Position numbers and translations under genes: made by a program. A DNA stretch of 62,167 bases, filler included. It is 4 parts of 4 records of this genome, joined end to end, with 100 filler letters (N's around TTAATTAATTAA, not from the genome) between each part and the next. Parts side by side here need not be neighbours in the genome. Positions count along the whole stretch, not along the records: positions 41,235 to 53,446 come from DRR723986_7833; 3 more parts are not named here. The stretch is one strand, 5' to 3'. Position 1 is the stretch's first letter. Each line of letters begins with the position of its first letter. The notes under the pieces were generated by a model. That model searched no databases. It was not told where the DNA came from and worked only from the letters and a program-made list of their open reading frames with translations. This document shows positions 40,037 to 62,167 of this stretch, piece by piece.

Positions 40037-40126
40037 GGCCGGCAGTCTGTGAACTGTTTAAGCTGACAGCTAAACGAATGTTTTATATTGTTGCGGGGTC
40101 AATTGTTGGCGGCTTGTGGATACGCG

Positions 40127-40180
40127 ACAAACAAAAAACTCAAAAAGCAAGCCTGAAGTGGAACGCCGGGCGCTGCAATC
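40127..40180 (-). repeat. bipartite dispersed repeat, copy C
   Basis: minus strand: GATTGCAGCGCC-N15-GGCTTGCTTTTTGAGTTTTTTGTTTGT. Confidence 0.8.
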
Positions 40181-40316
40181 AGAACACGTTTGCCTGAGGA
40201 TTTGCGCAAAATGGTGTGTCTTGTTGTAAATTCAATATTTTGTACTACCGGCGCAATAGTCGGGTAGCCAGTCAATTGGCGGCCCGGATCACACTATGTA
40301 GCACTGAGAAAAGCAC

Positions 40317-41234: not shown

Positions 41235-41459
41235 ATTCCGGCTATCTTTCAATTACTCAATTAACCGCGTTACCCACTCGGGACTCAAATGTGCGATTCT
41301 ACCATCTACACTCAGCGACAAAAGTACATGAGACTCTACGACTCCAATACTTCTCGATCAGTGACTAACAAGATGGCCTTTAAACTGCCCACGTAGTGAG
41401 GCAGCCGCGCCGCAAAAAAACTATCAACTATTTAACAAGCCGCAGGTTAAACAAGGCAC

Positions 41460-41495
41460 AAAAAAACCGCTGGAAGAACAAGTCCTCCAGCGGTT
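41460..41495 (-). terminator. Rho-independent terminator after the giant gene
   Basis: AACCGCTGGA-N11-TCCAGCGGTT with an A-run on its left (U-tail on the minus strand), ~50 nt after the stop. Confidence 0.75.
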
Positions 41496-41544
41496 AAGAA
41501 TACAACATCTACAAGAGATGTTTAATTCGTATTACCAGCGACGA

Positions 41545-44500
41545 TCATTCACATCCCGGCTCAGGTTGGCTGATCTTGTTTAATGCGATTCGGATGTTTC
41601 GCATGCGCAAGAGCGGCAGATTTGAGCTGGTCAACTCGGAGAAGACGGCGATGTCAAAGGCAAAGAAACCATCCTGAACGGCTGGTTGGTTCTGCTCGAA
41701 CCAACTGGACGTAGCGCAGGAAAGTTCATGTGCCGTATTCGAGTTTAAGTTAAACGGCTCGCGCAGGAATACTGGCAGGAGCGTCACAATGCCGTCCTGT
41801 TCACATACATCCTCAGTTTGCGTTTGGCCGTGGAAGATCGTAAAACCATACAGAGCTCCAACACGCATGCGTGCCGTGGAATCCGCCCCAAAAAGAAGGT
41901 TAAACAGATTCTGCAGATACGGCGCCAGCGTGTCCCAATCGGGATCAACACCAGGTAGCGCGGCCAGATCGATACACTCCTCAGTATCCGTTAATGGCGA
42001 AGCAACGTTAACAAAACGTACCAGCGGCGTTTGGTACACAAAGTTAGGATTAACGTCAAAGAACTCACCCGTACTCGGATTAAAGGAGAGCTGACGGTTG
42101 CGCTCCAGGCGAATGCCGGACCAGGCGTTCTCATATTCCAGGATGTTAAGTTTATCCATGACGAACATACGCACCAACTCCGTCGCATCCGCTTCGGCCT
42201 GCGCACTCATGCCACGCGGCGCAACACTTAAACGCGTATTTGCCGGTGTACATGCAGGCTGCTCAACAAGTTCACCACCCGGACCGTAAACACGCGTTTC
42301 GGGTTTGCCTTCAACTTCGTGTTGGTCAAACTTAAACCAGAGGCCGTCACGCGGTTCCAGAATTGAAGGCCAGAAGCCCGTAGCTTGCTGGATACGCTCA
42401 ACGCGAATGGCGCCGGACTCGTCAGGGTGTGAAACCTCAAAACGATCCGTGCCACCTTCAGCGCTAATGCGTTGGTTGGCGCTGTTATTGCCCGTCACCC
42501 AGGCTTTCCAGGAGTTGGCTGCACCCTGAACGAGCTCAGCAAATGCGCTGAGTGCGTTCGATGCGGCTTCACCTGGGTTATCGCCCGAGAGTTCGTTCAA
42601 CAGCGGCTGCAGAACCGGATATTCACGTGAGAATCGCGCCAACCAGTGTGAGAGTGGAATCGTGACGGCCATCTTGGCCATAGCCGCGAAATTGTCCGGC
42701 GCAAGGTTGTACTCGATCTCTGTGATAATCGAATCCTGCTCGACGTCATCATGCTCATAAGAGTACAAATAGTACCAGCTGCGCGCTCTATCGAGCACAC
42801 TTCCACTGCCCTCGTATTCACCTGAGCAAGGGTTCTGGCTAACCAGCGTCGGCGGCGTTGGGTACTCGCGCAGCGGCAGTGGCACATTCGCAATTCCCAT
42901 ATCCACGACTGTGTTGGGCGTCAGGAATGTTAACCACGAAGATGAGCGGTACTCGCGCGCGCCATCCGGTGCGGCTCTAAAGTCATGCTCTAAATGCGAA
43001 AGTGCATATTCGAGCGGTAACTCCAGGGCCCTGCGGCCGGCAGCCACGTTGGAATCCAGTGTAAATGTTAAGCGCGAATTCGGACTTCCGCTCGAACCAG
43101 CATCCGGTGAGACGCGAATCTTAGCCGTTGAAAGCGTGCTGTTGTCAGTTGCATCGTCCAGTACAGGTTCTTCGCTCAGTCCAGGCCTGCGCACCGAACC
43201 AAACAGACGCGGTGCATCCTGGCCACTGAACTCCGATTTAACTCCTACCGGATATTGCAGGACGGCCTGCAGCGTATACGCCTGCGTTAACTGGATCAGA
43301 AGCTGCTGACGCAAGGTTTCCTTGGCAGCAATCAGATTATCGCCACCGGCACGGCCGGCGTCAACGTCCAGAATGAATGTTAATCCTTCGACAATACTAT
43401 CGGCCAGCAATTGTTTGCTGCTCAATATCGTATCGAAGGCTTCCGGATTTAACTGGCGCGCATTAACGGCACTTTCGGGCCCAAGGACAATGTCCACGGC
43501 TTCCAGGAAGGCCTGTGCGGTGTCGTCCAGATCCAACCCACTGATTTGCTCCGGCGTGGCAATAATTTGCCCATTGCCATCGCGTAGTGGCCAGCCATTG
43601 TCGTCGTACTGCACAATTCCAACCGTTCCCTGCCAGAGCGTGCGTGAAAGCGGCTTGGGCGCGTAGTAAATTGGATTGTTCAGAATGTTAACATCAATAC
43701 CCTGCGTATCCGCATCAGCCGCCGAACTGGAGACCAGATCAAGACGCACAGACCAAAGATTTGCAGTGCCAATGTCATCCACGCCGCTCGCGGCTTTGAG
43801 TTCGGTGAAAGCCGCCTCAAATTCACGCGCAAAGAATTCAAGTGAATTATTTGTGTCGGCAGGATTTTGATCCAGGCCATCACCCACCTGCGTCATGGGC
43901 GCAATGCTTGTGACAGCCGTCTTGACTGTAGGCATGCGTTCTACTGCCTGAGCGTCAAGATTGTCGCTACGCTCAATCGTCAGGTTAACAAGGATTTCAG
44001 CAATGTCGCTGCTCTGCTTGTCGCGATCTGCGCGGTCGATGGTCAATGTCAGGCGTGTTTCGATCGGGCTGTCATCTACGGCAACACCATTTGTGATGTC
44101 ATCCAGGAACTTGTAGATATTCTCTACAAACTCGCAGAGTGCCGTCCGAATCTCTTCACTATCGGGAGCGCCGGAATATTCCGGTGCCAATGTCGTGGCC
44201 ACGTCGAAGCTCGTACCTGCGTCAGCCAATTGATAAAAGATGCGTCGATACTGCGCTTTGGTCTGCAGGATATCTTCAGCGTCCAGCGTGCCTTCAACAA
44301 AACTCTCTTTGTTAAACACAAATGCGATCGTCAGATCACCGGTACCGCTCTGGCCTTCTTTTTGCGTCACGAGGAACCAGCTATCGATGCTTGGCCACTG
44401 ATTCGGTGGAATCAGTTCATCAAAGTACCGCACGGGAATGTTAAGTACACCGGATGAACTGTCAAGGCGGTTGCCAAACAGATCTACGAAGTTGTACTGC

Positions 44501-47500
44501 ATGCCGGCGGTATTACCAACACCTGCATAGGGCGATGTTCCTGTGATTATATCACTCGTGTAAGCCGGCGGAACCGGATCCTTAAAGAAGGACGCGATGG
44601 CCAGAGCCTGACGGTAACGCCACTCGGCTTCATCGACGGCTTCCTGAACAACATCTTCGTCCTGCTCAGTTGGTCCAACGGGCAGACCCTGCGTACTGCG
44701 CTTAAAGCCGCCGTCATCTTTGAGGAAGAACTCAAGCAAACTGTAAAGGTTGTTTAAGTCGCTCTCAGTTAACTGATCATCATCCAGTGCGGCTTTGAAT
44801 TCAGCTGAATTCGGCGCAATTCCGGCGGCGCGCAGCGCATCAACAACTTCAAACTGGTTGAGTTTGGTACGACGCTTGGCATTTGGCGCAACACTTGCCG
44901 GCAGATCAAATACGGCCGTTGGGTTGCTGCGTTCAATGCGGAATGCGGCCGTACCCGGCGAAAGCACCGCGTGATATGTAGTTTCATCAACAGCATCAGC
45001 AAAGAATACAGCACCATTTGCCGAGGACTCGGGCGTTGGCGCAGTGCGATCCAGCTGGATAGTGTTAATGTATTCGGCCACATTCTGTCCGGCGGGCTGT
45101 TGCTCTGTTTGCAGCACAACCATCAGTGTCAACTCAATCTGGTTGCCATCCTCAAACAGGTAATCCGGCAGAGCATTGCCTGCGGAGTTTTTGTAGAAGA
45201 GGTAGTAACCACCAGAGTTAACAATACTGAGCTCGTCAATCAGGCGCAGGAATGAGTTGGTATCGGCCATGGTCGCCGAAAATTCGGGATCGGGCTGATA
45301 GGCTGCATCCAGTGCCATTTTCGCCATTGGCGAGGTGTTCGGATTGCTTTCAGTTGAGAGATTCGTTTTAACCAGCAGGATTTCGCTCGGGTCCAGAACG
45401 TCGGAAATCGCGCCCTGGCCACCGGAGTCGTCACCCTGGCCGGCGTACAGAATCTTAATCGATTCGATTGCGGGGCCGTCGAGCAGCAGGCGTTCGAGGA
45501 TATCGCGATCTGACTCACTGGTGCCACCCAGCTGATACACATTGGACAGCGTGGCGCCGGCCTGACGTGCATCGGGAATCTGCTGAGCAGTGATTGTTAA
45601 CTGCGTTGTGAGGCGATATGTGACGCTGATAGGATCACCGCCGACGGACTCATAGACTTCGCCGGTACTGCCCTCTTTCCAGGCCAGTTTAAGTGGATTG
45701 TTGCTGACCAGTTTCTGGCGCAGACTATCCGTAAATGGATAGAGCGAACGCGCGGTACCCGAATCATCCCAGGCAGTCACAGTTTGCAGTGCAAAGGTGA
45801 CGTCGGCTGGTTCGCTGAACTCTTCAAGCGCAGCGCGGACGTCGCCCGGATCAATGCTTGAGTGCTCAAGTCGTTCAATCTCGGCGCGGCCTTCGTCGTC
45901 GATTTCAACCTTAACGACACCATTCATGCTGTACCAATCTGCGTCGGTATTTTCATAGAATATGGTGTATTCGGGCTGCTCTTCTTCACTCACAGGTTGC
46001 AGGTTAAGTGCAAACTGCTGTCCGGTTTGTTCGTAGAGCGCTTTAGTCTCGATTTCCGGCCACACATCACGATCGGATGGGAATTCTCCACCGTTCGGAT
46101 TCGGGACGCGCAGACCGTGATTCATAAAACGCGAAGCCATACCGGAGACCTGGCCGAACTGATTACTGCTGTACATGTCGTCAAGCAGATCGCTGACCGT
46201 AATGGCCGACGCTTCCGAGTCGGTTAACATCTGCTGCGCAAGCTGCACAGCGGACTTCATGACGAGAGCGAAGTAATCCTGGAAGACGATGGTCGGCATG
46301 GAGACGCCGTCGACAGCCATCATCTTGCGCGCCATCTCGTCCAGATCACTCAGAATGTCGTCACTCACAGAAAGCAGACGGAAGTATTCTGCCAGATCCT
46401 GCTCGAACTGACGTGTGCGCAGGTTAACATCTGCAAAATCAACGTTAATCGGATCACCAGCCTGATTCTCGGTACGAACAAGCGATTGCGGGATGATTGG
46501 GAATGTCGTCGCATTTCCGTCTTCGGGATTTGCTTCCGGCAAACCAACTATCATCGTGAAGTTTAGCTTGATGAAGTCTGTAAGCGTTGCGTAGTCAAGC
46601 GGCGTTGAGCCGTCAACCGATGTTGCCAAAGTCGGTGGCAAGTCAAGCATTTCCATCAGTGAAGTCAAAGACTCCTGGCTGACGGTATGGTCGAGGATAT
46701 TGTCGGAGTCAGGCACCGAATCATGCAGTTTAATCGACCAGGACAGCATCGTAGCTGCCAGGCGATTAAATGCCGTGTCACGCCACGAACCTTCAGTCGG
46801 CGGCGTTTCATTCGATGGGCTTTCAACCAGCAAGGATGTCACCGCCTGCGCGGCCAGCTTGCCGTTCGAGTCGATAACGGTCGTTTGCGGTGAGAACCAA
46901 ACCGGAAGATCCAGCGGGGCGTCATTAAACACTTTGGACGGCGTCCAGGAAATAACCGGCGCGGCCGCAAGCCTAAATGCTGACGGCGTGGCCAGTTTGT
47001 TCGCGCTGGTTTTCTTACCGTCGTCAATGAGCCACTCTTCGCGGAAGGTCGCTTTGAATTTGAACGAAACTTTGATCTGGATTTTAATTCCAAAGACCTT
47101 AACGCCAATCTTGGCCCAGGCTTTGACTTCAACTTTGGCTTCAAACCAGATCAGGAAAGGCTCGTCATTCTGCCAACGCGCACCGATCGCCACGGAGACT
47201 TTGAGTGAGATACCAGCTTTAACAATTCCGAAGTCGGCTTCACCGCTGATGTTCCCCACCAATGCGAGCTGACCTTGTAGCAGCCAGGCATCCGGCACGG
47301 AGAAGATCGTGCTTTTGCCGCCCTCCAGAATCCAGCCCGCCGCACCTTCGATTGAACCATTAACTGTTAATGACAGTTTGGCCTTAAATGGACCAGATTT
47401 CAGTTCTTTGCCGAGTCCAACACTTAAGGCAATCCCCATTTCTAGTACTGGATCGAGGATTGCGCCGGAAGGCACGCTGAGCGTGCTGGACGTGATTCCG

Positions 47501-50500
47501 TTCAGGTAACCAAAGTAGAGTCCACCTTTACCCTGGAAGACTATAATCGTGACGCCGAACGAATTTGAGAAATCGGTGATATCGGCCGGATAACCGATGT
47601 CAATCCGGAAGTTCCCATTCGTAAATATCTGCACGCCAATGCTTGGCAGGAAGATCGTAAACTTCTTGAAATCCAGCTTGCGCAGCGAATCCGGCAGAGT
47701 CAGGTTGGCAGCGTACACACCGATGTCGTCGGTAATTTTTTTGTACATGATCTGGAATTCGAAGTTCTCGAATTTGCCTTTCTGCACAACTTTAACAAGC
47801 AGGCCATACAAGACCGGATCGTTAAACACACCACCAAGTGTTACAGCTTCAAACAGCGTAAACTGCGCACCGATTAACCAGTTGCGGTCAGAGTGATAAA
47901 AAGCTCGCAATGCCGTCATCAACTCAGCGCGATCCATGCTGGAGCTGGGTAACTCCTCCATCATATATTTGAGCACTTCGCTGACGCTGCGGAACTTGTT
48001 CGGATCGGATGTATCCGGTCCAACGCGCTGGCCTAATCCCAGATATGCAACGCTGAGCCAGGCTTTGTCATCATCCTTCGGCGGGTCGTCTTCATTATTA
48101 TTGCCGTTTTGTGGATCGTCTTCCTTAAGCGCCAGTTTGGCACGGCGAGATTTAGCTGCACCTGGATTGCCTTCTTCCGGCTCGCCGGGCTCATCCGGGT
48201 TCTTCGGTGGCAGCGCAATTGCATCCGCCGTATTTGAGTAACCGAAGTACCAACCCAAATTGGTCGTGGAGCCGTTGGAGGTATTGTTTGGATCAGCGAA
48301 CAGCATCAGATCCATTCTCATGGAAACTGTGATGTCGATCTTGTTAAACATCTTCAGCTGGAAACCACCGAGCATCAGGACAAAAACGATGTCTTCATTT
48401 TCGTCGGGGAAAAACTCCAGGCGGATCAGCTCAAATGTTAACTGCAGGATGCCCATCAGGTCGAACTCCTGCTTGCCGCCGGCAATACTCGGGAGTTTGA
48501 TCCACATGTTCCATTGGCTTCCATCCCAGCCGAGCAAGACCTGCGCACTCAGTCCCTGACCGAATGATACGAGCGCGCCGAGCGTCCCCAGGTCCAGTTC
48601 AGCGAAGAATGAATAGCGCGGAGCCTGCAAACCAACCGGTTCATCGGTCGGAATGTCAATCGTAAAGAAGCCGTCGTCAGCCGGTTTGAAGGTTTTGCCG
48701 GGCTTACAGTCCGCCATATCTTCAATGTAGTTGTCGGGCGAGGGGCCCATGCGCAGCGACGAGAGTTTGATCGGGAAACCTTTGAGAAGGCTGTTGTCGC
48801 GCAGTTTAGAGTTGGCCGCCTTCGGGTTGAGAATCGCCGAACGCGGATCAAATGCGAAGAGCAGCGGCGGCTCCGGCGTGACATTAATCTCGTTCTGCAT
48901 CAGAATGCCAACGCCGCTGACCGCCAGGCTCTCATAGGAGAAGATGTCAGCATTTTTAGTGCCGGATTCACCCGTCGCCAGATTGCGAAAACGCATTGAG
49001 CCCCAAATGCTAAACAAGGAAGTGATCGTCATCGGGTCGTCGTAGTCTACAGCCTCCAGCGGGTCTGTGTAAACTGTCGAGAATTCAATCTGACTGATTT
49101 GCATTCCGGAGACGATCGACTCCGTGTCAACGGTGTCAAACTCAAAAGCTCCAAGCGTTACGAAGCTGTAGTGTGACTGCCCGTCGGCATCCACGTAACC
49201 GCCGTTGATAGTGATGATGTTATCATCAACCCCCTTCTGGCTGACTGCCTCATCCCACAGAGTGTTAATCGCCACTTTTACCCTGCAGGCAAAGTCGCGA
49301 ATCTGTGTATTGGTGAACAGGACACGCAGCAATTCAACGTGGAAGTCATAACAGGTTGTTGCCGGTGTGAAGTCCGGCTCGCTGTAGTCAATCAATGCAA
49401 AGAGTGAACTCTGCTGCAGTTCCGGCCCCTGGGCGCCGCTGCGGATCAGGTTAACATCAATGCCGAAGTAGGCTGCCTTAAACTGGCTCAGATCCATGCC
49501 GGCGGTTATCCCGCGAATCTCGTTCGGCAGTCCCGACGGCGGCACGGGCACGTTAAACACGAGCACCCCGCTCCAGCGCGGATTAACGGCGGCTTCAGCC
49601 AGTGCGCGCCAATTCGGATCGGTGGCATTTTCAATTGCCCTGGTGAGTGTTGCCTTGATGGTGGAATGCACCAGCGGCAAGTCTTCCGGATTGTTAAATG
49701 CTGTGGGTGTGCTCCAGAGCTCAACGCAGTCAATCAAGGTCTCCAGCGCAATTCCATCGTAGAACTTCATCAACATGATTGTTGATTCAGCGCCACGCGG
49801 CTCCAGGTCAAACTCCCAGCCCGTAATCGGAATTGTGCCGCTCGTATCGCGCGAGCCGGTAAAACGGCCAAGTGAACCTTGTTTGCTGGCTACGATAAAA
49901 GAGTTGTCGGCCTGCAGTGCATTCTGCAGATCCTCGGTCACTTCGTTGATTTGAACTGTAACGACGTTACCATTTTCTTCAGTCGTCTGCGCCAGTTTAA
50001 TTGTTTTCCAGCGCGAGGCGTCCACGTCAACATCGGCCACAACACCCTGGTTGGTCGTTGCGGCAATTGGTGTGCCGCTGCTGCCGCTCGGCGGAATTGG
50101 CGTGATTTTTTTGCGCCGGTCGGGTGCGACGGCGCGGTCGAGCAACTTTTTAACATCAGAAACTGAGTAGTATCCGTTGTTAAGGTCGATGCGCCCCAAT
50201 GGCGTCACCGGAAACGATTTGCCGTCGAGCGTCAATGCACCGGAGTTTAACTCCAGAAACCCGAGCACGTCGGACTTCGAGAACTCACCGGTTTGTGCAA
50301 AGAGCGCCGAAGAAATCGGCTGGGCGTAGTAGTCACTGGGCGCATCACCATCGGCGGCGGCGTTTGCACCATTACCGTTGGTCGGCGCCGGAGGCCCCAT
50401 TTCAATCCAGGCAGTCGTGACTTCACCTGTAAGCAGTGAAGGATTCTCGAGTGCTTCAAAGTCGGTGGTACACTGGTCGCGCAGGGCTTTGGGCGCAAAA

Positions 50501-51540
50501 GCCGGCTTGTTGGGCACAAAACGCACAGTTGCGCCGGCAGCTTCGTTAAAGGCCACGTATTCGGAGCCGGAGCCGCCGGGCATCATGCGCGTTACGCCAC
50601 CGCTGCCACTGGCTTTGACGTTAAAGTCACCACAAGGAGTGACGTAGAAAAAACTCTGATCGCCAATGAAGTCCGGACTGATTTGCAGTACCAAACGCGC
50701 ACCGTCACCGGGCTGAATTGAGACCGGGTGCCCCAGGTTAGTACGGAAGTAACTGCCGACGCGTTCCTGGCTGCTAAACGCAAAGTAGGTCCGGTTTTCG
50801 CTCAGGCGATTGGCCGGATCGTAGACCATCGTAAATGGAATGGCCGCGCCGTTTTCAAAGTTAAACACGCTGAAACGGATCGGCAGAATTTCTTCGTCGT
50901 CATTCGGCATAAAATAGCTGCACGAAGTGCGCATGCCGTCCAGATTTTCTTCGCTAAACTCCAGCGCACCGCACAGTTGGCCGGCGCTGCTTTGCCCCAG
51001 CGAAATCACGAGCGGGTCAGCGATATTAACCGTTCGTGCCGGAGTCGAAAGTCCACCGGTAATGACGGAATTAGGAAATTCCGGCTGTGGCGTGAGTTCA
51101 AAGCTCAATCCATCCTGTGTTAACACAAGCTGGTTGCCCTTACTTACACGTACGATATTCGGCTCAAAGCGGAAGTCCATGCGCTCGTCGGTAACGGCCG
51201 CGTCCGGAGCACCACTAACCTGCAGGCTGTTAAGCACCAGGCTGGGGCCGGAGGCATCCCAGCTAACAACCCAAGCAAAGCGGGTTGTGCGGTCGATTTC
51301 CTGCTGCGCGCGGAATGCCTTAACGAATTCCGTTAAGTCTTCCGGTTCGGTGGCTGCAAAGACGTAACTGCCGTTCGCATCGGCCCAGGCCTCCGCAGCT
51401 GTTAACTCCGGCGGCGCGTTATTGCTTGTGCGCAGTACAAAGGCAAACCAGGAGCCCACAGCTCCCTCGCCTTCAGCATACACCGGAAGGTAGACTCCCG
51501 GCTGCGCGTCCATCTGTTTAAAGTTCATTATTGTATTCAC
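41545..51540 (-). CDS. giant uncharacterised protein (3331 aa)
   Basis: uninterrupted ~10-kb ORF with protein-like composition and a downstream terminator; function not recognised; start could be GTG 51540 or a nearby ATG. Confidence 0.9.
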   Translation of the reverse strand: MNTIMNFKQMDAQPGVYLPVYAEGEGAVGSWFAFVLRTSNNAPPELTAAEAWADANGSYVFAATEPEDLTEFVKAFRAQQEIDRTTRFAWVVSWDASGPSLVLNSLQVSGAPDAAVTDERMDFRFEPNIVRVSKGNQLVLTQDGLSFELTPQPEFPNSVITGGLSTPARTVNIADPLVISLGQSSAGQLCGALEFSEENLDGMRTSCSYFMPNDDEEILPIRFSVFNFENGAAIPFTMVYDPANRLSENRTYFAFSSQERVGSYFRTNLGHPVSIQPGDGARLVLQISPDFIGDQSFFYVTPCGDFNVKASGSGGVTRMMPGGSGSEYVAFNEAAGATVRFVPNKPAFAPKALRDQCTTDFEALENPSLLTGEVTTAWIEMGPPAPTNGNGANAAADGDAPSDYYAQPISSALFAQTGEFSKSDVLGFLELNSGALTLDGKSFPVTPLGRIDLNNGYYSVSDVKKLLDRAVAPDRRKKITPIPPSGSSGTPIAATTNQGVVADVDVDASRWKTIKLAQTTEENGNVVTVQINEVTEDLQNALQADNSFIVASKQGSLGRFTGSRDTSGTIPITGWEFDLEPRGAESTIMLMKFYDGIALETLIDCVELWSTPTAFNNPEDLPLVHSTIKATLTRAIENATDPNWRALAEAAVNPRWSGVLVFNVPVPPSGLPNEIRGITAGMDLSQFKAAYFGIDVNLIRSGAQGPELQQSSLFALIDYSEPDFTPATTCYDFHVELLRVLFTNTQIRDFACRVKVAINTLWDEAVSQKGVDDNIITINGGYVDADGQSHYSFVTLGAFEFDTVDTESIVSGMQISQIEFSTVYTDPLEAVDYDDPMTITSLFSIWGSMRFRNLATGESGTKNADIFSYESLAVSGVGILMQNEINVTPEPPLLFAFDPRSAILNPKAANSKLRDNSLLKGFPIKLSSLRMGPSPDNYIEDMADCKPGKTFKPADDGFFTIDIPTDEPVGLQAPRYSFFAELDLGTLGALVSFGQGLSAQVLLGWDGSQWNMWIKLPSIAGGKQEFDLMGILQLTFELIRLEFFPDENEDIVFVLMLGGFQLKMFNKIDITVSMRMDLMLFADPNNTSNGSTTNLGWYFGYSNTADAIALPPKNPDEPGEPEEGNPGAAKSRRAKLALKEDDPQNGNNNEDDPPKDDDKAWLSVAYLGLGQRVGPDTSDPNKFRSVSEVLKYMMEELPSSSMDRAELMTALRAFYHSDRNWLIGAQFTLFEAVTLGGVFNDPVLYGLLVKVVQKGKFENFEFQIMYKKITDDIGVYAANLTLPDSLRKLDFKKFTIFLPSIGVQIFTNGNFRIDIGYPADITDFSNSFGVTIIVFQGKGGLYFGYLNGITSSTLSVPSGAILDPVLEMGIALSVGLGKELKSGPFKAKLSLTVNGSIEGAAGWILEGGKSTIFSVPDAWLLQGQLALVGNISGEADFGIVKAGISLKVSVAIGARWQNDEPFLIWFEAKVEVKAWAKIGVKVFGIKIQIKVSFKFKATFREEWLIDDGKKTSANKLATPSAFRLAAAPVISWTPSKVFNDAPLDLPVWFSPQTTVIDSNGKLAAQAVTSLLVESPSNETPPTEGSWRDTAFNRLAATMLSWSIKLHDSVPDSDNILDHTVSQESLTSLMEMLDLPPTLATSVDGSTPLDYATLTDFIKLNFTMIVGLPEANPEDGNATTFPIIPQSLVRTENQAGDPINVDFADVNLRTRQFEQDLAEYFRLLSVSDDILSDLDEMARKMMAVDGVSMPTIVFQDYFALVMKSAVQLAQQMLTDSEASAITVSDLLDDMYSSNQFGQVSGMASRFMNHGLRVPNPNGGEFPSDRDVWPEIETKALYEQTGQQFALNLQPVSEEEQPEYTIFYENTDADWYSMNGVVKVEIDDEGRAEIERLEHSSIDPGDVRAALEEFSEPADVTFALQTVTAWDDSGTARSLYPFTDSLRQKLVSNNPLKLAWKEGSTGEVYESVGGDPISVTYRLTTQLTITAQQIPDARQAGATLSNVYQLGGTSESDRDILERLLLDGPAIESIKILYAGQGDDSGGQGAISDVLDPSEILLVKTNLSTESNPNTSPMAKMALDAAYQPDPEFSATMADTNSFLRLIDELSIVNSGGYYLFYKNSAGNALPDYLFEDGNQIELTLMVVLQTEQQPAGQNVAEYINTIQLDRTAPTPESSANGAVFFADAVDETTYHAVLSPGTAAFRIERSNPTAVFDLPASVAPNAKRRTKLNQFEVVDALRAAGIAPNSAEFKAALDDDQLTESDLNNLYSLLEFFLKDDGGFKRSTQGLPVGPTEQDEDVVQEAVDEAEWRYRQALAIASFFKDPVPPAYTSDIITGTSPYAGVGNTAGMQYNFVDLFGNRLDSSSGVLNIPVRYFDELIPPNQWPSIDSWFLVTQKEGQSGTGDLTIAFVFNKESFVEGTLDAEDILQTKAQYRRIFYQLADAGTSFDVATTLAPEYSGAPDSEEIRTALCEFVENIYKFLDDITNGVAVDDSPIETRLTLTIDRADRDKQSSDIAEILVNLTIERSDNLDAQAVERMPTVKTAVTSIAPMTQVGDGLDQNPADTNNSLEFFAREFEAAFTELKAASGVDDIGTANLWSVRLDLVSSSAADADTQGIDVNILNNPIYYAPKPLSRTLWQGTVGIVQYDDNGWPLRDGNGQIIATPEQISGLDLDDTAQAFLEAVDIVLGPESAVNARQLNPEAFDTILSSKQLLADSIVEGLTFILDVDAGRAGGDNLIAAKETLRQQLLIQLTQAYTLQAVLQYPVGVKSEFSGQDAPRLFGSVRRPGLSEEPVLDDATDNSTLSTAKIRVSPDAGSSGSPNSRLTFTLDSNVAAGRRALELPLEYALSHLEHDFRAAPDGAREYRSSSWLTFLTPNTVVDMGIANVPLPLREYPTPPTLVSQNPCSGEYEGSGSVLDRARSWYYLYSYEHDDVEQDSIITEIEYNLAPDNFAAMAKMAVTIPLSHWLARFSREYPVLQPLLNELSGDNPGEAASNALSAFAELVQGAANSWKAWVTGNNSANQRISAEGGTDRFEVSHPDESGAIRVERIQQATGFWPSILEPRDGLWFKFDQHEVEGKPETRVYGPGGELVEQPACTPANTRLSVAPRGMSAQAEADATELVRMFVMDKLNILEYENAWSGIRLERNRQLSFNPSTGEFFDVNPNFVYQTPLVRFVNVASPLTDTEECIDLAALPGVDPDWDTLAPYLQNLFNLLFGADSTARMRVGALYGFTIFHGQTQTEDVCEQDGIVTLLPVFLREPFNLNSNTAHELSCATSSWFEQNQPAVQDGFFAFDIAVFSELTSSNLPLLRMRNIRIALNKISQPEPGCE

Positions 51541-51683
51541 TCAAGTGGGTGGATAAACATTTTTGCCAACTCTGGACGCCGAATTCGCAGGAACAGTGAA
51601 ACTGGCTGCAGATTCGGCGCATTTGAGCTGTGGTCATCAAGGACATCGACAATCAGCGGCCTGGGCATTGGAACCCGGCGACT

Positions 51684-51717
51684 TAACAAAAAGAAAAAGT
51701 AAGCCACCGCGTGTCAA
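51684..51717 (-). promoter_or_regulatory. possible promoter region of the giant gene
   Basis: minus-strand TTGACA at 51712-51717 followed by GGCTTACTTTTTCTTTTTGTTA, loosely like the dispersed repeat; no convincing -10 box at 17 bp. Confidence 0.25.
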
Positions 51718-51822
51718 CAGAGGGGGCGAAGCGCTCATGCAGAATCCGATCCGGACAAGTAATCATTGCCAAAACAGATTTGCGTTTGCTGTGCCCACTA
51801 TGCTCCCTGTTATCACTGGAGT

Positions 51823-53115
51823 TTAATCACCAGGGTTGGGCCAGCTAATGTCAATCATATCTCCGCGCACAACCGGAAGGTCAAAAGCATCCAGGCCAAG
51901 CATATTCGGCGCTGGAACATTTTTAACAAAGTTAACGGGATAGTACTTGCGGTTAAAATTGCGCCACACGTTAAAGTCAGGCCCAAGGCGGAACGGCAGC
52001 CAGTTCCAGTACGAATCGAGCAAGTTACGCACGGTAGTTCCCATGGAAACCAAATCGGTCTGTCCCTGCAAATTAACCAGAGTGCGCGGCAGAATAATAT
52101 CGCGGCCGCGGAAGATGCTACACTGGATGGAGCGCAGATTATTGGCAAGGTCATCACTGCTCGCGCAAGTTCCGCTGTTAATATATGCCTCGGTGGCCTT
52201 GGCCATATCTTCGAGTGAATCCGTTCCAATGATTGTGACGTTATTGGCGATATCACTCACACCGGCACCACTGCTGACGAACTGTGGCGGATAAAACAAG
52301 CGCAGGTAGTAACGTGCATTGCCTTTGGCTACCAGGTCGATAATTCCACCCGCAATAATTATCGGGCCATCACCAGTTCCCGATCCGGCTTGAATTTCGG
52401 GCGGACGAATGGCGCCCAGGAAACCGTCAAATGTTAAGCGTTTATCGGAGCTGCGTTCCACAACCATATAGTCGGACGTGCCCACGCCTACAAAACCGTT
52501 AAGTGCCTGACCGGACTGGCCGCTGCCCGCATACTGGTAGGATGCGGTATCGATCCGGATATTGGTTCCGGCCTGCAAATCCACATATGCTTCCGAATTG
52601 TTAAGTCCATTGTAGAAGAACAGGGACTCTTCAATTGATAGCGGCAGATTTTCGGCCACCTGCTGTGTTAATATTGAAAGCGACCCCTGCACGAGGCAGC
52701 CATTGCGTTCCATTGTTTCAATTTGCTGACGAAAAATGTCAAATGCCTGTTTCAGTTCCGCTCGGTCAGCCGTTTTATTGGTCCACACGGCGCCGGGCTG
52801 CACGGTAATCAGCGCGTTAAGTGGTTTAACAGTTGACTCGCGTTTAAGCGAAAAGATATTATTGCCCGACGGTGGGGTTTCGCCTGCGGTAATCACGCAG
52901 CCACCCGGCCCATCGGTAGTTACAAAAACATCCGGCACCACAAAACAAAATGGCTCACGTTTTTGCTGCGTAGTAAAGTTCGCCAGCGGCGGCGGAATAA
53001 TATAGGGCTGATTCGCATCGGAATTATCGTTCGGCCCACTGAACGCATTAGTAACAGATATTACCGACGCCCATTCGCTTACAGGTACCGGGTTGCAAAC
53101 TGAATCACTGGCCAT
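51823..53115 (-). CDS. hypothetical protein (~430 aa) with possible C-terminal beta-grasp (ThiS/SLBB-like) domain
   Basis: AGGAG RBS 6 nt before ATG 53115; C-terminus LVNLQGQ..VSMGTTVRNLL...DLPVVRGDMIDI. Confidence 0.8.
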   Translation of the reverse strand: MASDSVCNPVPVSEWASVISVTNAFSGPNDNSDANQPYIIPPPLANFTTQQKREPFCFVVPDVFVTTDGPGGCVITAGETPPSGNNIFSLKRESTVKPLNALITVQPGAVWTNKTADRAELKQAFDIFRQQIETMERNGCLVQGSLSILTQQVAENLPLSIEESLFFYNGLNNSEAYVDLQAGTNIRIDTASYQYAGSGQSGQALNGFVGVGTSDYMVVERSSDKRLTFDGFLGAIRPPEIQAGSGTGDGPIIIAGGIIDLVAKGNARYYLRLFYPPQFVSSGAGVSDIANNVTIIGTDSLEDMAKATEAYINSGTCASSDDLANNLRSIQCSIFRGRDIILPRTLVNLQGQTDLVSMGTTVRNLLDSYWNWLPFRLGPDFNVWRNFNRKYYPVNFVKNVPAPNMLGLDAFDLPVVRGDMIDISWPNPGD

Positions 53116-53381
53116 GGAGTACTCCTGCGGCATGCCGCAAAGTTTGAGGTGTTACGTAAAACAGGTGCTGTCACACCAGCGGCGGCTCTCAGTGAAGGCG
53201 GTTGAGGCAGCGTATTGGCGTGAGTCGCTCGGAGATTTCAGGTTATTCCCCATCGCAACCGTGCACAGTGGATCTTCCAAGAAGAACTGGAAAGCGATAA
53301 GTCCCGGAAATTGGCAATTTCCCGAGAATCACCCAAACAAATCTGCATTCGGTGGAAAAGTTTTGCTCGCAATGTGTGGCA

Positions 53382-53446
53382 GATTGCAGCGCCTGCGGCG
53401 GCTTAGGCCTTGCCCAGGCTTGCTTTTTGAGGGTTTTGTTTGTTAT
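53382..53446 (+). repeat. bipartite dispersed repeat, copy B (at contig end)
   Basis: GATTGCAGCGCC-N23-GGCTTGCTTTTTGAGGGTTTTGTTTGTTAT. Confidence 0.8.
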
Positions 53447-53546: not shown

Positions 53547-53547
53547 G

Positions 53548-53718
53548 ATCCAGGAGAACATCAAGAAGCCGCTCGCCGAGGAACTGCTCTTCGGCAAGTT
53601 GACCAAGGGCGGCGTCGTCAAGGTCGCCGTCAAGGATGGCGAACTGGTGCTGAACCTCGAGGGGCCGGACCACCCGCGCCTGAGCTCCAAGAAACCGCCG
53701 CTGCTGACGGCGGACTGA
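53548..53718 (+). CDS. clpA: ATP-dependent Clp protease ATP-binding subunit ClpA, C-terminal fragment (not in the ORF track)
   Basis: translates IQENIKKPLAEELLFGKLTKGGVVKVAVKDGEL...KKPPLLTAD*, a typical alphaproteobacterial ClpA end. Confidence 0.85.
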   Translation: MQENIKKPLAEELLFGKLTKGGVVKVAVKDGELVLNLEGPDHPRLSSKKPPLLTAD

Positions 53719-53735
53719 CAGACCGATCAGGGATT

Positions 53736-53764
53736 GGGGCGCCTTCCGGGGCGCCCCTTTTTCT
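53736..53764 (+). terminator. Rho-independent terminator after clpA
   Basis: GGGGCGCC-TTCCGG-GGCGCCCC-TTTTT. Confidence 0.85.
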
Positions 53765-53929
53765 TGCGATATCGGGCCAGCCTACCGAGGGCCGCGTGTT
53801 GCGGTGAACCCTCCGGGGGCCATCCGTGACACGGTCCGCCCCGGCGACGGGCCAGCACAGGGCAACCGCCGGCCACCGGATGGGTCGTGGCGACCGACGC
53901 GCCCGCAAACGCGCGACAACAGCGTCAGC

Positions 53930-55075
53930 TCACGCTTTCACCCGGCCAGTCAGCCGGAACTTCACGCCCTCGGGCCGGAAATCCAGATGCGCGTCGCCGT
54001 CGAAATAGGACGCCACGATCTGTTCGATCAATCTGGACCCGAACCCGCGCCGGGCCGGTTCCTCGACAGTCGGCCCCCCGGCCTCGATCCACTCGAAGAA
54101 GAACCCGCTCTCACAGGCCCCCCAGGCAATCGAGACGCGGCCGGTGGCATTCGACAAGGCCCCGTATTTGGCCGCGTTCGTTGCCAGTTCATGGACGGCC
54201 AGCGACAGGCCAAGCGCCTGCTGCGAGTCGAGCGGCATCCGAGGACCGGCAAAGGTCAGACGCTCCCCCGCAACGCGATGCGGGGCGAGGGCCGCTTCGA
54301 TGATGGGATGAATGTCCGTCGTTTCGAAATTGGCCCCCGCAAGGATATCCTGAGCGCGGGACAACGCCCCGAGCCTTGCGGCGATCGCGGCACGCCCCTC
54401 TTCGAGGCTTTGCACCTGCCGGAGCGTCTGGGTGGCGATGGCCTGAACGATCGCGAAGATGTTCTTCATGCGATGCGCGAGTTCGTCGTTCAGCAGCCTC
54501 TGAAGCTCTTCGGCATTCTTGCGGTCGCTGACGTCCGAGGCGGCCCCCATCCAGCTTGTGATCTCTCCGCCTTCGCCGAAAAGCGGCACCGCGCGGGACA
54601 TGGCCCAGCCCACCGAACCGTCGACGCGGTTCACCTTGTGTTCGAGGTTGTAGGTGTCCCTCTCTGCGATGGCGCGCCGGATTTCCTCGCGCACGAGATC
54701 GCGGTGCTCTTCCGGGATATACTCTTCCAGCCAGTTCGCATTGCTCGCAGCGGTATCGGGGATGAACCCGCCACCGGACAGTTGCGCAAGTTCGCTCCAA
54801 TCCGCATTCAGCCGATAGCGGACCTCCGACGAGGACCGGATCAGCGCATCGAGTTGCGCGACAAGCTCTGCGCGATCCTGCCGGGCCTGGGTGGCGTCGC
54901 GATCCGCCGCCCCGCGGATGGCGTCGGCCTCTGCCGCCTCGGCCCGGGTCTTGGTGCGCTCGGCGCGCAGCGCGGCAATCTCGGCCCTGAGGGCTGCATT
55001 CTCGGCGCGCAGGTCCGCATCGACATCGAGGATCTTGTCGTCGGCTTGCGGATTCGGTCGTTCGGAGAGGGTCAC
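53930..55075 (-). CDS. PAS-domain HWE-family sensor histidine kinase
   Basis: PAS/PAC (WAMSRAVP..WMGAASDVSDRK), ELAHRMKN H-box, HELATNAAKYGALS, WIEAGGP; GTG 55075 with AGGA RBS preferred over 55336. Confidence 0.88.
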   Translation of the reverse strand: MTLSERPNPQADDKILDVDADLRAENAALRAEIAALRAERTKTRAEAAEADAIRGAADRDATQARQDRAELVAQLDALIRSSSEVRYRLNADWSELAQLSGGGFIPDTAASNANWLEEYIPEEHRDLVREEIRRAIAERDTYNLEHKVNRVDGSVGWAMSRAVPLFGEGGEITSWMGAASDVSDRKNAEELQRLLNDELAHRMKNIFAIVQAIATQTLRQVQSLEEGRAAIAARLGALSRAQDILAGANFETTDIHPIIEAALAPHRVAGERLTFAGPRMPLDSQQALGLSLAVHELATNAAKYGALSNATGRVSIAWGACESGFFFEWIEAGGPTVEEPARRGFGSRLIEQIVASYFDGDAHLDFRPEGVKFRLTGRVKA

Positions 55076-55293
55076 GTCAATGGTTCCTGCTGGCCATATG
55101 TTTCGAAGCAATACCCCAGTTTGCCGCATCCTGTCGAACGCCGATCGGGCACCGGCCGAGGAACGCCGGGGAACTGCGCCCGGAACCGGCGAAATTGCAC
55201 CACAATTGGCCCGGCGCGGGCGTGCGGGGCGCCCCTTTCCCTTTGCCCGCGCCTCTGTCACGCTGTCCCCGCCCCCAGATGCCGGAGCCCGCG

Positions 55294-56247
55294 ATGCGCA
55301 TAGCCCCCCTGTTCCTGCTCGCCGCCCTGCCCGCACAGGCGCAGGACCTGACGCTGGCCTTCCCGCTCGACTGCACCCTCGGGACGGATTGCTACATCGA
55401 GGATTACGTCGATCAGGACGCCGAACCCGGGCGGCAGCGCGACTTTGCCTGTGGCTTCAACGCCCGCGACGACCATCGGGGCACGGATTTCGCGCTTTTG
55501 TCCTTCGACGCCATCGAGACCGGCGTGACCATACGCGCGGCGGCGCCGGGGCGCGTGCTGCGCACCCGGGACGAGATGCCGGACGACCGGCTTATGCGCG
55601 GCGTGACGGAGCAGACCGCCTGCGGCAACGCAGTGCTGATCGACCACGGGGCCGGCTGGCAGACGATGTATTGCCACATGCGGCGCGGTTCCGTCGCCGT
55701 GGCGCCCGGGGACCGGGTCGAGACGGGCACGGCGCTTGGTCTCGTGGGTCTGTCGGGACAGACCAATCACCCGCATCTGCATCTGACGGTCACGAAAGAC
55801 GGGCAGGTCGTCGACCCCTTCCGCCCCGATGCCCAGCCCGGCACTTGTGGCGAGCCGGGCGCGACGCTTTGGCAGGACCCGCCCGCTTATGTGAAGACCG
55901 GCCTTGTGACGGCAGGCTTCTCCACCGGCGTTCCCGAATTCGACGCCATCCGCGACGGCTCTGCCCGCGCGGAATACGGCGCGCCGTCCCTGCCGCTGGT
56001 GGTCTACGGGCTGATGGGTTTCGCCCGGAAGGGTGACGTTCTGGAGCTGTCCGCAACCGGTCCCGAAGGCGAGATCTTTCGCCATTCGGTGCTGATGAAG
56101 ACGACGCAGAACAGCGCCTTTCAGGCTTTCGGCAAGAAGGCCCCGCCCGGCGGCTGGCCCTTGGGCGAATACCTCGGAAAGGCGCTTCTGACGCGGCAGG
56201 GCACGGTGATCGCGCATCGGTTCGCGCATATCGAGGTCCGGCCCTAG
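55294..56247 (+). CDS. M23 family metallopeptidase
   Basis: signal peptide, HRGTDF (HxxxD), YCHM, HPHLH (HxH); GGAG RBS. Confidence 0.9.
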   Translation: MRIAPLFLLAALPAQAQDLTLAFPLDCTLGTDCYIEDYVDQDAEPGRQRDFACGFNARDDHRGTDFALLSFDAIETGVTIRAAAPGRVLRTRDEMPDDRLMRGVTEQTACGNAVLIDHGAGWQTMYCHMRRGSVAVAPGDRVETGTALGLVGLSGQTNHPHLHLTVTKDGQVVDPFRPDAQPGTCGEPGATLWQDPPAYVKTGLVTAGFSTGVPEFDAIRDGSARAEYGAPSLPLVVYGLMGFARKGDVLELSATGPEGEIFRHSVLMKTTQNSAFQAFGKKAPPGGWPLGEYLGKALLTRQGTVIAHRFAHIEVRP

Positions 56248-56266
56248 GGGCGCCCCCGCGCGCGGA

Positions 56267-59128: not shown

Positions 59129-59131
59129 GGC

Positions 59132-60307
59132 CTACCCCTCTCCGCGGGGACGCGCGTTCCGGGTGATCCCCAGCGAGCGCGTCAGCGCCGCGATGTCGGT
59201 GCGCAACTCGGCCATGCTTTCCTGCCGGCCGGCGCTGATTTCCTCTAGGATGCGCAGCATCTGCACGTCGATCGACCGCAGGCGCATCCGGCTTTCGGCA
59301 TCCAGCCCCTCGTTCGATTCCTTGGACCGGATGGCGTCGGCAAGGTTCTCCTGCCCGTCGGCGATCCGCGCCAGAGAGGCGGCAGAGGGCGCCGTGGCCT
59401 CGATCCGCTCCGTCAGACGCTCGACGCTGTCGGCAAGCTGGGCAAGACGTTCGTCCACCTCGGCGCGGCCCTGCTGGCTTTCGACGAAGAGGTTCTGCAG
59501 CCGCTCCATCTGCTCTGCCATCTGGTCCAGCACGACACCGGCGGCGCCAAGGTCCGGCCCGTCGGTGTCCGAGGAAAAGCCCAGCTTGGTGATCGAGGAC
59601 AGCCATTCCTCGAGCTCGCGGTAAAAGCGGTTCTGCCCGTGACCGGCGAACAGCTCCAGCAGGCCCACGACCAGCGAGCAGGCAAGCCCCAGCAGCGAAG
59701 AGGCGAAGGCCACGCCCATGCCGCCAAGCTGCGCCTCCAGCCCGGTCATCAGGCGGCCAAAGACGGCGACGCCGCTTTCCCCTTCGGAGGGCGCCAGCGA
59801 CTGGATGGTCTGCACCAGCGCCGGCACGGTCGTCGCAAGGCCGTAGAAGGTGCCCAGAAGGCCAAGGAAGATCAGCAGCGAGACGATGTAGCGCGTCACG
59901 TCGCGCGCCTCGTCGATGCGGGTGGCGACGGAATCGAGGATAGAGCGCGTCGAGGTTGTGTTGATCTGCATCCGCTTGTCGCGGCGCCGCCCCAGCAGGG
60001 CGGCCAGCGGGGCCAGCATCGTGGGCGCATCGGCGCGCACGCCCTGATCGCCCTTGGCGGTGAAGCGTTCGATCCAGCGGACCGAGTAGATCAGCTGCAC
60101 CACCTGCCAGAAGCAGGCCAGCACGCCGAGGACGAAGACGAAGGCGATGAAGCCGTTCAGATAGGGGTTCGACTGAAAGACCGGCAGCACGCTCGGCAGG
60201 GCTAGGAAGGCGCCGAACGCGGACAGGACGATCACGGCCAGCATCAGGACGACCTGGCGGACGGGTTGGCTGAAATGCGGCGCGGCCTCGCGGTCGGGCA
60301 GGTCCAT
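59132..60307 (-). CDS. MotA/TolQ/ExbB-like membrane protein with C-terminal coiled coil
   Basis: LIFLGLLGTFYGL, GMGVAFASSLLGL; directly upstream of the MotB-like gene. Confidence 0.87.
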   Translation of the reverse strand: MDLPDREAAPHFSQPVRQVVLMLAVIVLSAFGAFLALPSVLPVFQSNPYLNGFIAFVFVLGVLACFWQVVQLIYSVRWIERFTAKGDQGVRADAPTMLAPLAALLGRRRDKRMQINTTSTRSILDSVATRIDEARDVTRYIVSLLIFLGLLGTFYGLATTVPALVQTIQSLAPSEGESGVAVFGRLMTGLEAQLGGMGVAFASSLLGLACSLVVGLLELFAGHGQNRFYRELEEWLSSITKLGFSSDTDGPDLGAAGVVLDQMAEQMERLQNLFVESQQGRAEVDERLAQLADSVERLTERIEATAPSAASLARIADGQENLADAIRSKESNEGLDAESRMRLRSIDVQMLRILEEISAGRQESMAELRTDIAALTRSLGITRNARPRGEG

Positions 60308-60432
60308 CGCGTCCCTTGGCTTTGGTTTCACTGTCTCATCCCTACGGGTTTATCACTGCGCCGCCAAGCCGTTGTAAGGGTTTCCGCCCGCCGGCCGGGC
60401 AGATGCCGCGAAATTGATACAAAGGCCCGCGC

Positions 60433-60963
60433 TCAACCGGCGGTCAGCGCGCGCACCTCCCGCACCAGCCAGCGCAGGTCGGCATCGGGCACGCCCATCT
60501 GCTCCAGATGCGCGGCGGTGTTGTAGAGGTATTCGGTGTTCGGCCCCCGCCCCCCATGCGCGCGGGCGATCAGCCGGGCCTGTTCCTCCAGCGGCAGATC
60601 ACAGTATTGGACGTGGTCGGGGTCGATGACATAGGCCACCGCCTCGACCCGCCGCTTGTCGGTCAGCGCCAGTTCCACGGTCTGCTCGAGGTAGGCCGAA
60701 GAGATCAGCTCGCGCTCGCGCAGATAGGCCAGAGCGGCGGCCTCGGTGCCCTCGGCGGCCCGCAGCGCCAGCCCGTCGCAATGCTCGCCCTCGTGGCGAT
60801 CGAGCGCCAGCACGAGACCCGGCTGCGCCTCGGTGCCCCGGTGGTGGATCGAGTACATACAAAAGCTGCGACGATAGCCAGAGAGCCGCGCGGGCACGGT
60901 CTCGGCCACGTCGAAGCCGGGGTTCCACAAGAGAGAGGCGTATCCGAACACCCAAAGCGTCAT
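60433..60963 (-). CDS. chaC: ChaC-family gamma-glutamylcyclotransferase
   Basis: WVFGYASLLW, HRGT..QPGLVLAL, YLRERE, GPNTEYL. Confidence 0.9.
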   Translation of the reverse strand: MTLWVFGYASLLWNPGFDVAETVPARLSGYRRSFCMYSIHHRGTEAQPGLVLALDRHEGEHCDGLALRAAEGTEAAALAYLRERELISSAYLEQTVELALTDKRRVEAVAYVIDPDHVQYCDLPLEEQARLIARAHGGRGPNTEYLYNTAAHLEQMGVPDADLRWLVREVRALTAG

Positions 60964-61030
60964 GGCTGGTCCTTTCAGAGTGGCGCCTGTAAACACCAGA
61001 CGCGCAGTCTGCGAAAGGGGAGAGCACGGC

Positions 61031-61993: not shown

Positions 61994-62070
61994 CCGCCCC
62001 GCCCGCCAAGCAGACCCCGGGGCCAACGGCTCGGTGCCCGCCCCTTGGCGCGGCGAGCGAAGGCTCCCTG

Positions 62071-62145
62071 CTTCTCTGGTCCAAAAATGCCTCGGGGGTC
62101 CGGGGGCGTCATGTCGGAGTCATGTCTCTGGCATGACGCCCCCGG
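62071..62145. repeat. REP-like palindromic intergenic element
   Basis: CTTCTCTGGTCCAAAAATGCCTCGGGGGT then CCGGGGGCGTCATG-N18-CATGACGCCCCCGG hairpin; lies at the contig end. Confidence 0.6.
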
Positions 62146-62167
62146 CCGGTCGCCCCGCGCCAGCGGG

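Follow-up and report, generated by a model that had tools for sequence, protein, structure and literature searches.

The giant gene and its partner in the window

We analyzed a stretch of DNA of 62,167 nucleotides (the window), in which four contigs are separated by runs of N, and focused on a locus on contig 3 (positions 41235-53446). Two long, co-oriented open reading frames (ORFs) on the minus strand are the only genes of this contig: one encodes a 436-residue protein, referred to here as the partner (P0002), and the other a 3331-residue giant protein (P0001). A preliminary description of this DNA, made from the sequence alone, had reported such a pair closed by a terminator. We indeed found both ORFs in these places, together with a hairpin and T-run (41495-41465), a terminator-like element that would close the operon. 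The same description had taken the pair for an orphan, dedicated two-gene system, and in this it was mistaken. The locus is best explained as a compact, fused version of a widespread, uncharacterized multi-protein system. As judged from the related loci described below, its invariable core pair is an N-terminal module of ~1100-1280 residues (N-module) and a barrel-containing giant, and not the giant and its 436-residue partner. The notion of an undescribed system therefore holds, for a system that is larger than two genes and differently composed.

The ~10-kb giant ORF is intact, and a full-length homolog with 72% identity (P0003, from locus L001) is likewise free of frame breaks. Because this homolog aligns from residue 5, the ATG at 51528 is likely the true start of the giant. 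The modular layout proposed earlier was borne out: a low-complexity linker (16.7% Pro, 27.8% Asp + Glu) lies at residues 1106-1159 and is followed by a β-strand-rich block (Table 1). The N-terminal third is acidic, as had been stated (12.3% Asp + Glu versus 6.7% Lys + Arg), but it is not proline-rich (6.3% versus 6.0% overall). The predicted barrel is the sole charge-balanced part of an otherwise acidic giant. Contig 3 extends only ~300 bp past each gene.

Table 1. Features of the giant/partner locus, in positions of the window
Feature	Position	Strand	Remarks
Partner gene P0002	51823-53133	minus	ATG start, 436 residues
Spacer between partner and giant	51541-51822	minus	282 bp
Giant gene P0001	41545-51540	minus	3331 residues, counted from GTG
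N-module, giant residues 1-~1105	48226-51540	minus	Separate gene elsewhere
Low-complexity acidic, Pro-rich linker, residues 1106-1159	48064-48225	minus	Putative fusion joint
Family-defining predicted barrel core, residues ~1160-1506	47023-48063	minus	Most conserved block; AlphaFold2 model
Post-barrel mixed α/β region, residues 1507-2339	44524-47022	minus	AlphaFold2 secondary structure
Conserved C-terminal region, residues 2340-3331	41548-44523	minus	Colinear BLAST matches, motifs
Partner β-grasp-like tail, residues ~349-436	51826-52089	minus	Weak structural match
Terminator-like hairpin and T-run	41465-41495	minus	13-bp stem with 7 GC pairs, just past the giant stop codon

A large family of giants with a predicted porin-like core

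We compared giant residues 1140-2339 with 1.84 billion representative sequences in an exhaustive phmmer search and obtained 1247 clusters at E ≤ 1e-3, of which 853 match at E ≤ 1e-30. Nearly all of these proteins are 2000-4400 residues long. A word-based search returned 26 giant homologs: one full-length at 72% identity, three full-length at ~25%, and others of 2262-4212 residues. In BLAST alignments the relatives follow the giant colinearly, starting near residue 1140 and running to the C terminus, and the best conserved block is formed by residues 1150-1510, with 31-36% identity to distant relatives. The barrel core alone holds 27 of the 59 invariant columns of one family alignment (A2). Other positions invariant in the family alignments are Gly-2111, Gln-2437, Pro-2887, Pro-2894 and Pro-2897, and Asp-2353, Gly-2356 and Asn-2357. 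The C-terminal region, which is colinear with nearly all relatives in BLAST, carries FVDLFGN (44470-44490), IFYQL, PLPLREYPTPP and FVYQTPLVRF; all five motifs quoted in the preliminary description, GGYYLFY being the fifth, are present, and the invariant residues just named lie within them.

This family is large, uncharacterized and unannotated. Searches of Pfam, NCBIfam, PHROGs and PADLOC gave no match at E ≤ 1 for the giant and only sub-threshold matches for the partner (in PADLOC, none at all). Nothing usable came from comparing either the single giant sequence or a 12-sequence profile with the sequences of the PDB. As had been claimed, neither protein can be assigned by sequence to a characterized family in these databases. 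We found no description of the giant family in the literature outside subscription journals; two articles, PMC12419801 and PMC3482391, deal with other proteins in the passages relevant here. LysM domains (PF01476) are present in 20 of the 26 word-search homologs, inserted behind the barrel in the post-barrel region (residues 1776-1841 of P0010, 2186-2221 of P0007). P0001 itself contains no LysM detectable by Pfam, in line with the earlier statement, and on this domain evidence it is a LysM-free member of a wider family of LysM-bearing giants. Of two family names given in the preliminary description, "LysM-domain giant" hence proved apt, whereas no source uses "hemagglutinin-related". As a family for the barrel core we considered DUF6603 (PF20248), for which the protein-atlas score was just 0.79, at rank 28. 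It was rejected: the PF20248 model matches no giant in five carrier genomes at E ≤ 1, and a true DUF6603 protein reaches an hhalign probability of 0.6% against a family alignment (A4).

An AlphaFold2 model was calculated for giant residues 1140-2339 from an input alignment of 37 sequences. Its mean predicted local distance difference test (pLDDT) score is 79.8, with values mostly between 80 and 92 in the barrel block and below 50 at model residues 1-19, at the linker. Model residues ~21-380 (giant ~1160-1520) form ~17 antiparallel strands as assigned by DSSP, which lengthen from 8 to >20 residues, and the remaining ~800 modeled residues fold into mixed α/β domains. The core, residues ~1160-1506, is thus predicted to be a porin-like, antiparallel β-barrel of 16-18 strands. 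We carried out two structure searches with model residues ~20-380, using an exhaustive VIA comparison with 48,161 PDB representatives (search 1) and Foldseek's own top candidates (search 2). Membrane β-barrels account for all 50 matches listed in each search, with Z-scores of 8.6-13.2 and 10.5-13.2, respectively. CymA aligns over 240 residues with a Z-score of 13.2 and a root mean square deviation (rmsd) of 5.7 in search 1, in which the match at rank 50 still reaches 8.6. Further matches are OccAB1 (Z 13.0-13.2), maltoporin (12.9) and PgaA (4y25, 12.4), as well as the exporters PelBC (9h80, 12.2), BcsC (9b8h, 12.2), AlgE (4xnk, 11.5) and Wzi (2ynk, 10.9). Search 2 is led by the 18-strand OprD/Occ porins and AlgE. 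The barrel strands are strongly dyad-amphipathic, with one face averaging +3 to +4 on the Kyte-Doolittle scale.

Composition of the related loci

We compared the organization of related loci. In many of them the N-module is a separate gene of 1164-1277 codons located directly upstream of the barrel giant. We count ten such split loci; the form is found in G003, G056, G040, G274, L009, G617 (two loci) and in L029-L032, the last four from the IMG/VR database. Fused N-module/giant genes are seen in the window, L001, L004 and L008. Both split and fused forms, which the preliminary description had suggested looking for, therefore exist. Since the N-module is a gene of its own in ten related loci, we read the giant of the window as a fusion of what are, on this comparison, two obligate partners. 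Fused or separate, the N-module is found in every locus in which the region upstream of the barrel giant is visible. In the split loci the ends of the two genes overlap or abut, with overlaps of 1-54 nt in L009, G040, G617 and the IMG/VR loci, and the overlapping ends suggest translational coupling. An alignment of the N-module (A5) contains 50 invariant columns; the module has no Pfam match. Stand-alone N-modules were absent from the word-based search and were located through neighboring loci instead. In one IMG/VR locus (L031 7919-17655, GC content 45%) the barrel giant is itself present as two overlapping ORFs of 1614 and 1639 codons, which may reflect a frameshift, a sequencing error or a natural split.

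Split operons usually hold an additional gene of 297-477 codons between the N-module and the giant. In five loci (G003, L009, G056, G617a and G617b) this slot is occupied by an enzyme of the endonuclease/exonuclease/phosphatase (EEP) superfamily. Against a PF03372 cut-off of 24.5 bits, the G003, L009 and G617a proteins score 29.9, 25.9 and 39.7, respectively, and the G056 protein scores 19.3, below the cut-off; the G617b protein is 52% identical to that of G617a. The catalytic motifs WN, E, H, GDFN and SDH are kept in all five proteins, which have no signal peptide and begin directly at the catalytic WNI motif. A metallo-β-lactamase-fold protein takes the same position in G040, and the slot is empty in G274, in the IMG/VR loci and in all fused forms, including the window. 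PDB sequence searches with the EEP and metallo-β-lactamase slot proteins found nothing. The idea that a slot protein is a diverged copy of the partner was rejected (hhalign probability 0.1%).

The partner has 18 homologs at 28-72% identity, with 35 invariant columns. It lies directly upstream of the giant or N-module gene in all six partner loci that offer at least 1 kb of downstream sequence (three others end at contig edges), and the consistent pairing looked for after the preliminary description is found from the partner's side. Seen from the giant, the partner is adjacent in nine of the 16 loci examined and missing from seven, a distribution at odds with a dedicated two-gene system. The partner profile gives nothing at E ≤ 1 in G274 and G617, two genomes with three giant loci, and the four IMG/VR giant loci contain no partner. 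Among 301 Acidobacteriota genomes, four match the partner profile (one weakly) and four the barrel core, with both present and adjacent in three. On this gene-content comparison the partner is a subclade-specific accessory. When its AlphaFold2 model (pLDDT 77; predicted template modeling score 0.81) was compared by Foldseek with the PDB and BFVD, nothing matched at E ≤ 1e-3. The β-grasp tail proposed earlier is weakly supported, with Foldseek E values of 0.08 or worse: residues ~349-436 match GfcC (3p42, Z 5.3, rmsd 4.0, 62 residues aligned) and ThiS (3cwi, Z 5.3), with 59-65 residues aligned to GfcC/ThiS, as well as WzaB (9n9a, Z 4.9) and Wza (Z 4.7), and Z-scores below 8 can reflect a common arrangement of secondary structure. 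The tail may thus be β-grasp-like.

The partner genes are variable in number and surroundings. Tandem copies occur in four loci, and in L009 (1928-4567) two partner paralogs share one 879-codon frame with no stop in between, either a natural fusion or readthrough. In G040 (L018 12187-19460), a partner-like domain (residues 1497-1751) closes an 1831-residue FN3/Ig-repeat protein, which is preceded by a 592-residue Hint-domain protein (intein or pretoxin-like); both genes lie directly upstream of the N-module gene. Three tandem paralogs of 757-789 residues with DUF11 and DUF7619 are located just upstream of the partner gene in L001 (515-9495). One of them also bears a type IX secretion sorting tail (Por_Secre_tail), and a similar gene is present near a giant locus of G617, which belongs to the same order as the L001 genome (labeled Hyphomicrobiales); Alphaproteobacteria would not be expected to have type IX cargo. 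In G003 (L002 3162-5999), a 945-residue regulator with Trans_reg_C, nSTAND1 NTPase and HEAT domains is encoded on the opposite strand, ~3.8 kb upstream of the partner genes.

The preliminary description had reported that both proteins lack export signals. We likewise found neither a hydrophobic N-terminal segment nor a membrane-helix-like one in P0001, in P0003-P0005 (full-length relatives without LysM) or in the partners. Hydrophobic stretches flagged in relatives, among them P0004, P0005 and LysM-bearing giants, are internal only. The short form of the N terminus is common to homologs at only 25% identity (MNFKQ, MITFQ and MIEFK). Judged from these N termini, the components are made without Sec or Tat signals.

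Few of the sampled genomes (~1%) carry the system, and its distribution is patchy. Besides the four of 301 Acidobacteriota genomes, the barrel core is found in two of 201 genomes of the order of G002, one of which (G617) has two copies, and in none of 301 sampled Chloroflexota genomes. The four IMG/VR loci, each consisting of N-module and giant genes, lie inside predicted viral contigs of 68-99 kb. All are at the very end of the predicted viral region, one region starting inside the N-module gene, and three of the four are near-identical to each other. Their neighbors include a DNA invertase (phrog_125, E 1.5e-49), a transposase fragment and a tail-fiber-like ORF (phrog_16641, E 4.7e-15). Flanking genes in other genomes are ordinary ones: polyphosphate kinase, M61 and S9 peptidases, and an ATP synthase subunit. 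Links to extracellular contractile injection systems, type VI secretion systems or known defense genes, raised in the preliminary description, did not appear in the flanks examined, nor did PADLOC or PHROGs provide any such link for the giant or the partner.

Contigs 2 and 3 of the window share 70-76% nucleotide identity with a single genome, G002, labeled an uncultured Hyphomicrobiales metagenome-assembled genome, and contig 2 is colinear with one G002 contig over five stretches. A second genome, G001, shares 44% of the window's words; its sole match to contigs 2 and 3 is one of 149 nt, to contig 2, and neither the partner nor the barrel core was found in it. The spacer between partner and giant carries a ~55-nt element (~51685-51737), of which a second, similar copy is located in contig 2 (~40125-40182). 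Each has at least 12 scattered copies in G002 contigs at 73-89% identity, resembling repetitive extragenic palindromes or miniature inverted-repeat transposable elements; a repeat finder run within the window left the two copies unpaired. Contig 4 (53547-62167) has a GC content of 67-72% (70% overall), and contigs 1-3 are at 47-60% (53-58% overall). The window may thus mix contigs of different organisms, for example through a binning error.

Possible functions and relation to known systems

The preliminary description had envisaged toxin delivery, a surface scaffold or a lipid conduit. The predicted structure would narrow this to something built around a porin-like barrel, without choosing among the three. 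We tentatively favor, as a possibility rather than an expectation, a Sec-independent complex that attacks the envelopes of other cells, with the barrel as membrane conduit. We prefer this explanation because LysM domains occur in proteins without export signals, because the system behaves like an accessory, mobile element, and because the associated enzyme is variable. Its rarity, the duplication in G617, the mobile-element neighbors, and the Hint and FN3/Ig genes of G040 would be consistent with accessory, mobile and conflict-like behavior. In such a scheme, all components would be made in the cytoplasm without Sec/Tat signals, reach the outside by lysis or another, unspecified route, and act on the envelope of another cell. 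The LysM modules of most relatives (none here) could bind wall glycan, the barrel could serve as a membrane-inserting conduit, and in split operons the phosphodiesterase-type slot enzyme could be the delivered or co-acting activity. In the window version, which has neither LysM nor enzyme, the barrel giant and the partner would act alone, for example as a pore-former. A more specific form of the idea, which we consider doubtful, is that these giants insert their own 16-18-strand barrel from outside into a foreign membrane, aided by the N-module and LysM, and thereby open a conduit or deliver the phosphodiesterase.

Several observations weigh against an attack function. The window locus shows no enzyme gene, LysM, immunity, lysis or secretion gene, and six related loci share no conserved gene downstream of the giant. 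Foldseek gave no match at E ≤ 1e-3 when the giant-segment model was compared with the PDB, and the barrel likeness is a fold-level similarity of a predicted model that carries no functional proof. The hydrophobic face of the strands extends over as many as 11 alternate positions, more than would be required for a membrane belt. It consists of 67% Leu/Ile/Val/Phe and just 6% Tyr/Trp; its conservation exceeds that of the polar face (entropy 1.34 versus 1.86 bits; Mann-Whitney p = 8e-6). In the model, this pattern would fit a hydrophobic lumen or a buried core no less well than a surface that faces lipid. A face that is long, aliphatic and conserved counts against a simple membrane belt and keeps alive the idea of a lipid carrier.

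The giant could then be a cytoplasmic or membrane-associated carrier or conduit for lipids or another hydrophobic ligand, with the hydrophobic face lining the barrel and the slot phosphodiesterase acting on lipid head groups. The aliphatic face is continuous along strands of at least 20 residues and is better conserved than the Gly/Ser/Glu/Thr/Lys-rich polar face, none of the components has an export signal, and the slot enzymes come from the EEP and metallo-β-lactamase superfamilies. These superfamilies include phospholipid phosphodiesterases such as neutral sphingomyelinase and NAPE-PLD, but both also contain nucleases, and the window locus has no enzyme at all. Moreover, each of the 50 structural matches listed is a closed membrane barrel, with no TamB, VPS13/ATG2, LolA or BPI among them, and the LysM domains of most relatives point to wall glycan outside the cytoplasm. 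We consider a lipid carrier quite unlikely. Alternatively, the barrel could reside in the producer's own outer membrane, with LysM as a tether to peptidoglycan and the partner as a periplasmic subunit of the Wza/GfcC type, in polymer export or as a surface anchor. The polysaccharide-export barrels PgaA, PelBC, BcsC, AlgE and Wzi are indeed among the best matches of the core, the partner tail matches GfcC, WzaB and Wza, LysM is frequent among the relatives, and the absence of the core from the sampled Chloroflexota means that there is no case from a single-membrane lineage. General porins, however, score like the exporters and ThiS like GfcC, making the exporter theme unspecific. Signal peptide, lipobox and membrane helix are all lacking in the giant, its three LysM-free full-length relatives and the partners, and a rare, patchy system that is duplicated in one genome and found near mobile-element genes is unlike envelope housekeeping. 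An own-envelope structure seems rather unlikely to us. Lastly, the giant could be cargo or a structural part of a phage or mobile element, such as a protein that is associated with a virion or other particle, penetrates the envelope and is set free on lysis. Signal peptides are likewise missing from virion proteins, which can contain LysM, and the IMG/VR loci, on predicted viral contigs, have an invertase, a transposase fragment and a tail-fiber-like ORF as neighbors. Yet these loci sit at region ends (in one case the region begins within the N-module gene), three of them are nearly the same, and flanking genes in other genomes are ordinary. PHROGs contains no match to the giant and only sub-threshold ones to the partner, and the partner model finds nothing in BFVD at E ≤ 1e-3. 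We consider a phage component very unlikely.

Whichever function applies, an N-module that occurs split or fused, a slot that recurrently holds a phosphodiesterase-type enzyme and a partner specific to one clade together define a multi-component system that is now open to study. The four IMG/VR loci are presumed from the form of their names to be isolate-derived; if this is true, bench work would be feasible.

We compared the system with known large assemblies. The Tc/ABC toxins resemble it in that several very large subunits are co-encoded without Sec signals, an enzyme is tied to a giant scaffold, and the distribution is patchy and mobile. Our proteins differ in having no VRP1, neuraminidase-like, TcA/TcB, TcA_TcB_BD, SpvB or RHS/YD match in Pfam (NCBIfam is also blank) and in matching no PDB sequence; a β-barrel is their candidate conduit, and a cocoon-like shell is absent. 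AsmA/TamB-like bridge-type lipid-transfer proteins are similar in their giant size and in long amphipathic strands with a continuous aliphatic face. The giant, in contrast, has no AsmA or DUF490 match and no N-terminal anchor helix, and no open β-groove protein is among the 50 matches listed in either structure search. In the outer-membrane polysaccharide export (OPX)/β-barrel translocons (GfcC/GfcD, Myxococcus WzaB), a β-grasp-tailed protein likewise stands beside a large barrel protein. Here, however, the partner reaches Z-scores of only 4.9-5.3, tied with ThiS and ubiquitin-like folds, signal peptides are absent, and the partner is missing from seven of 16 loci. Inverse autotransporters (intimin/invasin, type Ve) also unite LysM, a β-barrel and a very long stretch outside the barrel in a single polypeptide, as seen across the giant family. 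They differ from the giant, which lacks a signal peptide and matches neither IAT_beta nor Big domains, whose predicted barrel resembles 14-18-strand rather than 12-strand barrels, whose relatives carry LysM after and not before the barrel, and which itself has no LysM.

The closest structural likeness is to the 18-strand channels of the OprD/Occ type and AlgE (5dl5, 3sy7, 3rbh and 4xnk), on which the core superposes over 227-251 residues with Z-scores of 11.5-13.2 and rmsd values of 5.1-5.6. Sequence identity to these channels is 6-12% with no Pfam porin match, the barrel here lies mid-chain within 3331 residues and lacks a signal peptide, and its hydrophobic face is longer and more aliphatic than expected for a membrane belt. 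What the giant shares with outer-membrane porins and exporters would thus be the fold only. The usual way for porin-type β-barrels into an outer membrane is through the Sec and BAM pathways. The family described here instead places a conserved, apparently porin-shaped barrel amid proteins of 3000-4400 residues without an export signal, in more than 1000 diverged clusters without annotation. Should this barrel insert into a membrane, it would represent a new barrel-insertion route and possibly a new inter-cellular weapon; should its hydrophobic face be turned to the inside, it would be a hydrophobic-lumen barrel of unusual size, and possibly a new lipid carrier.

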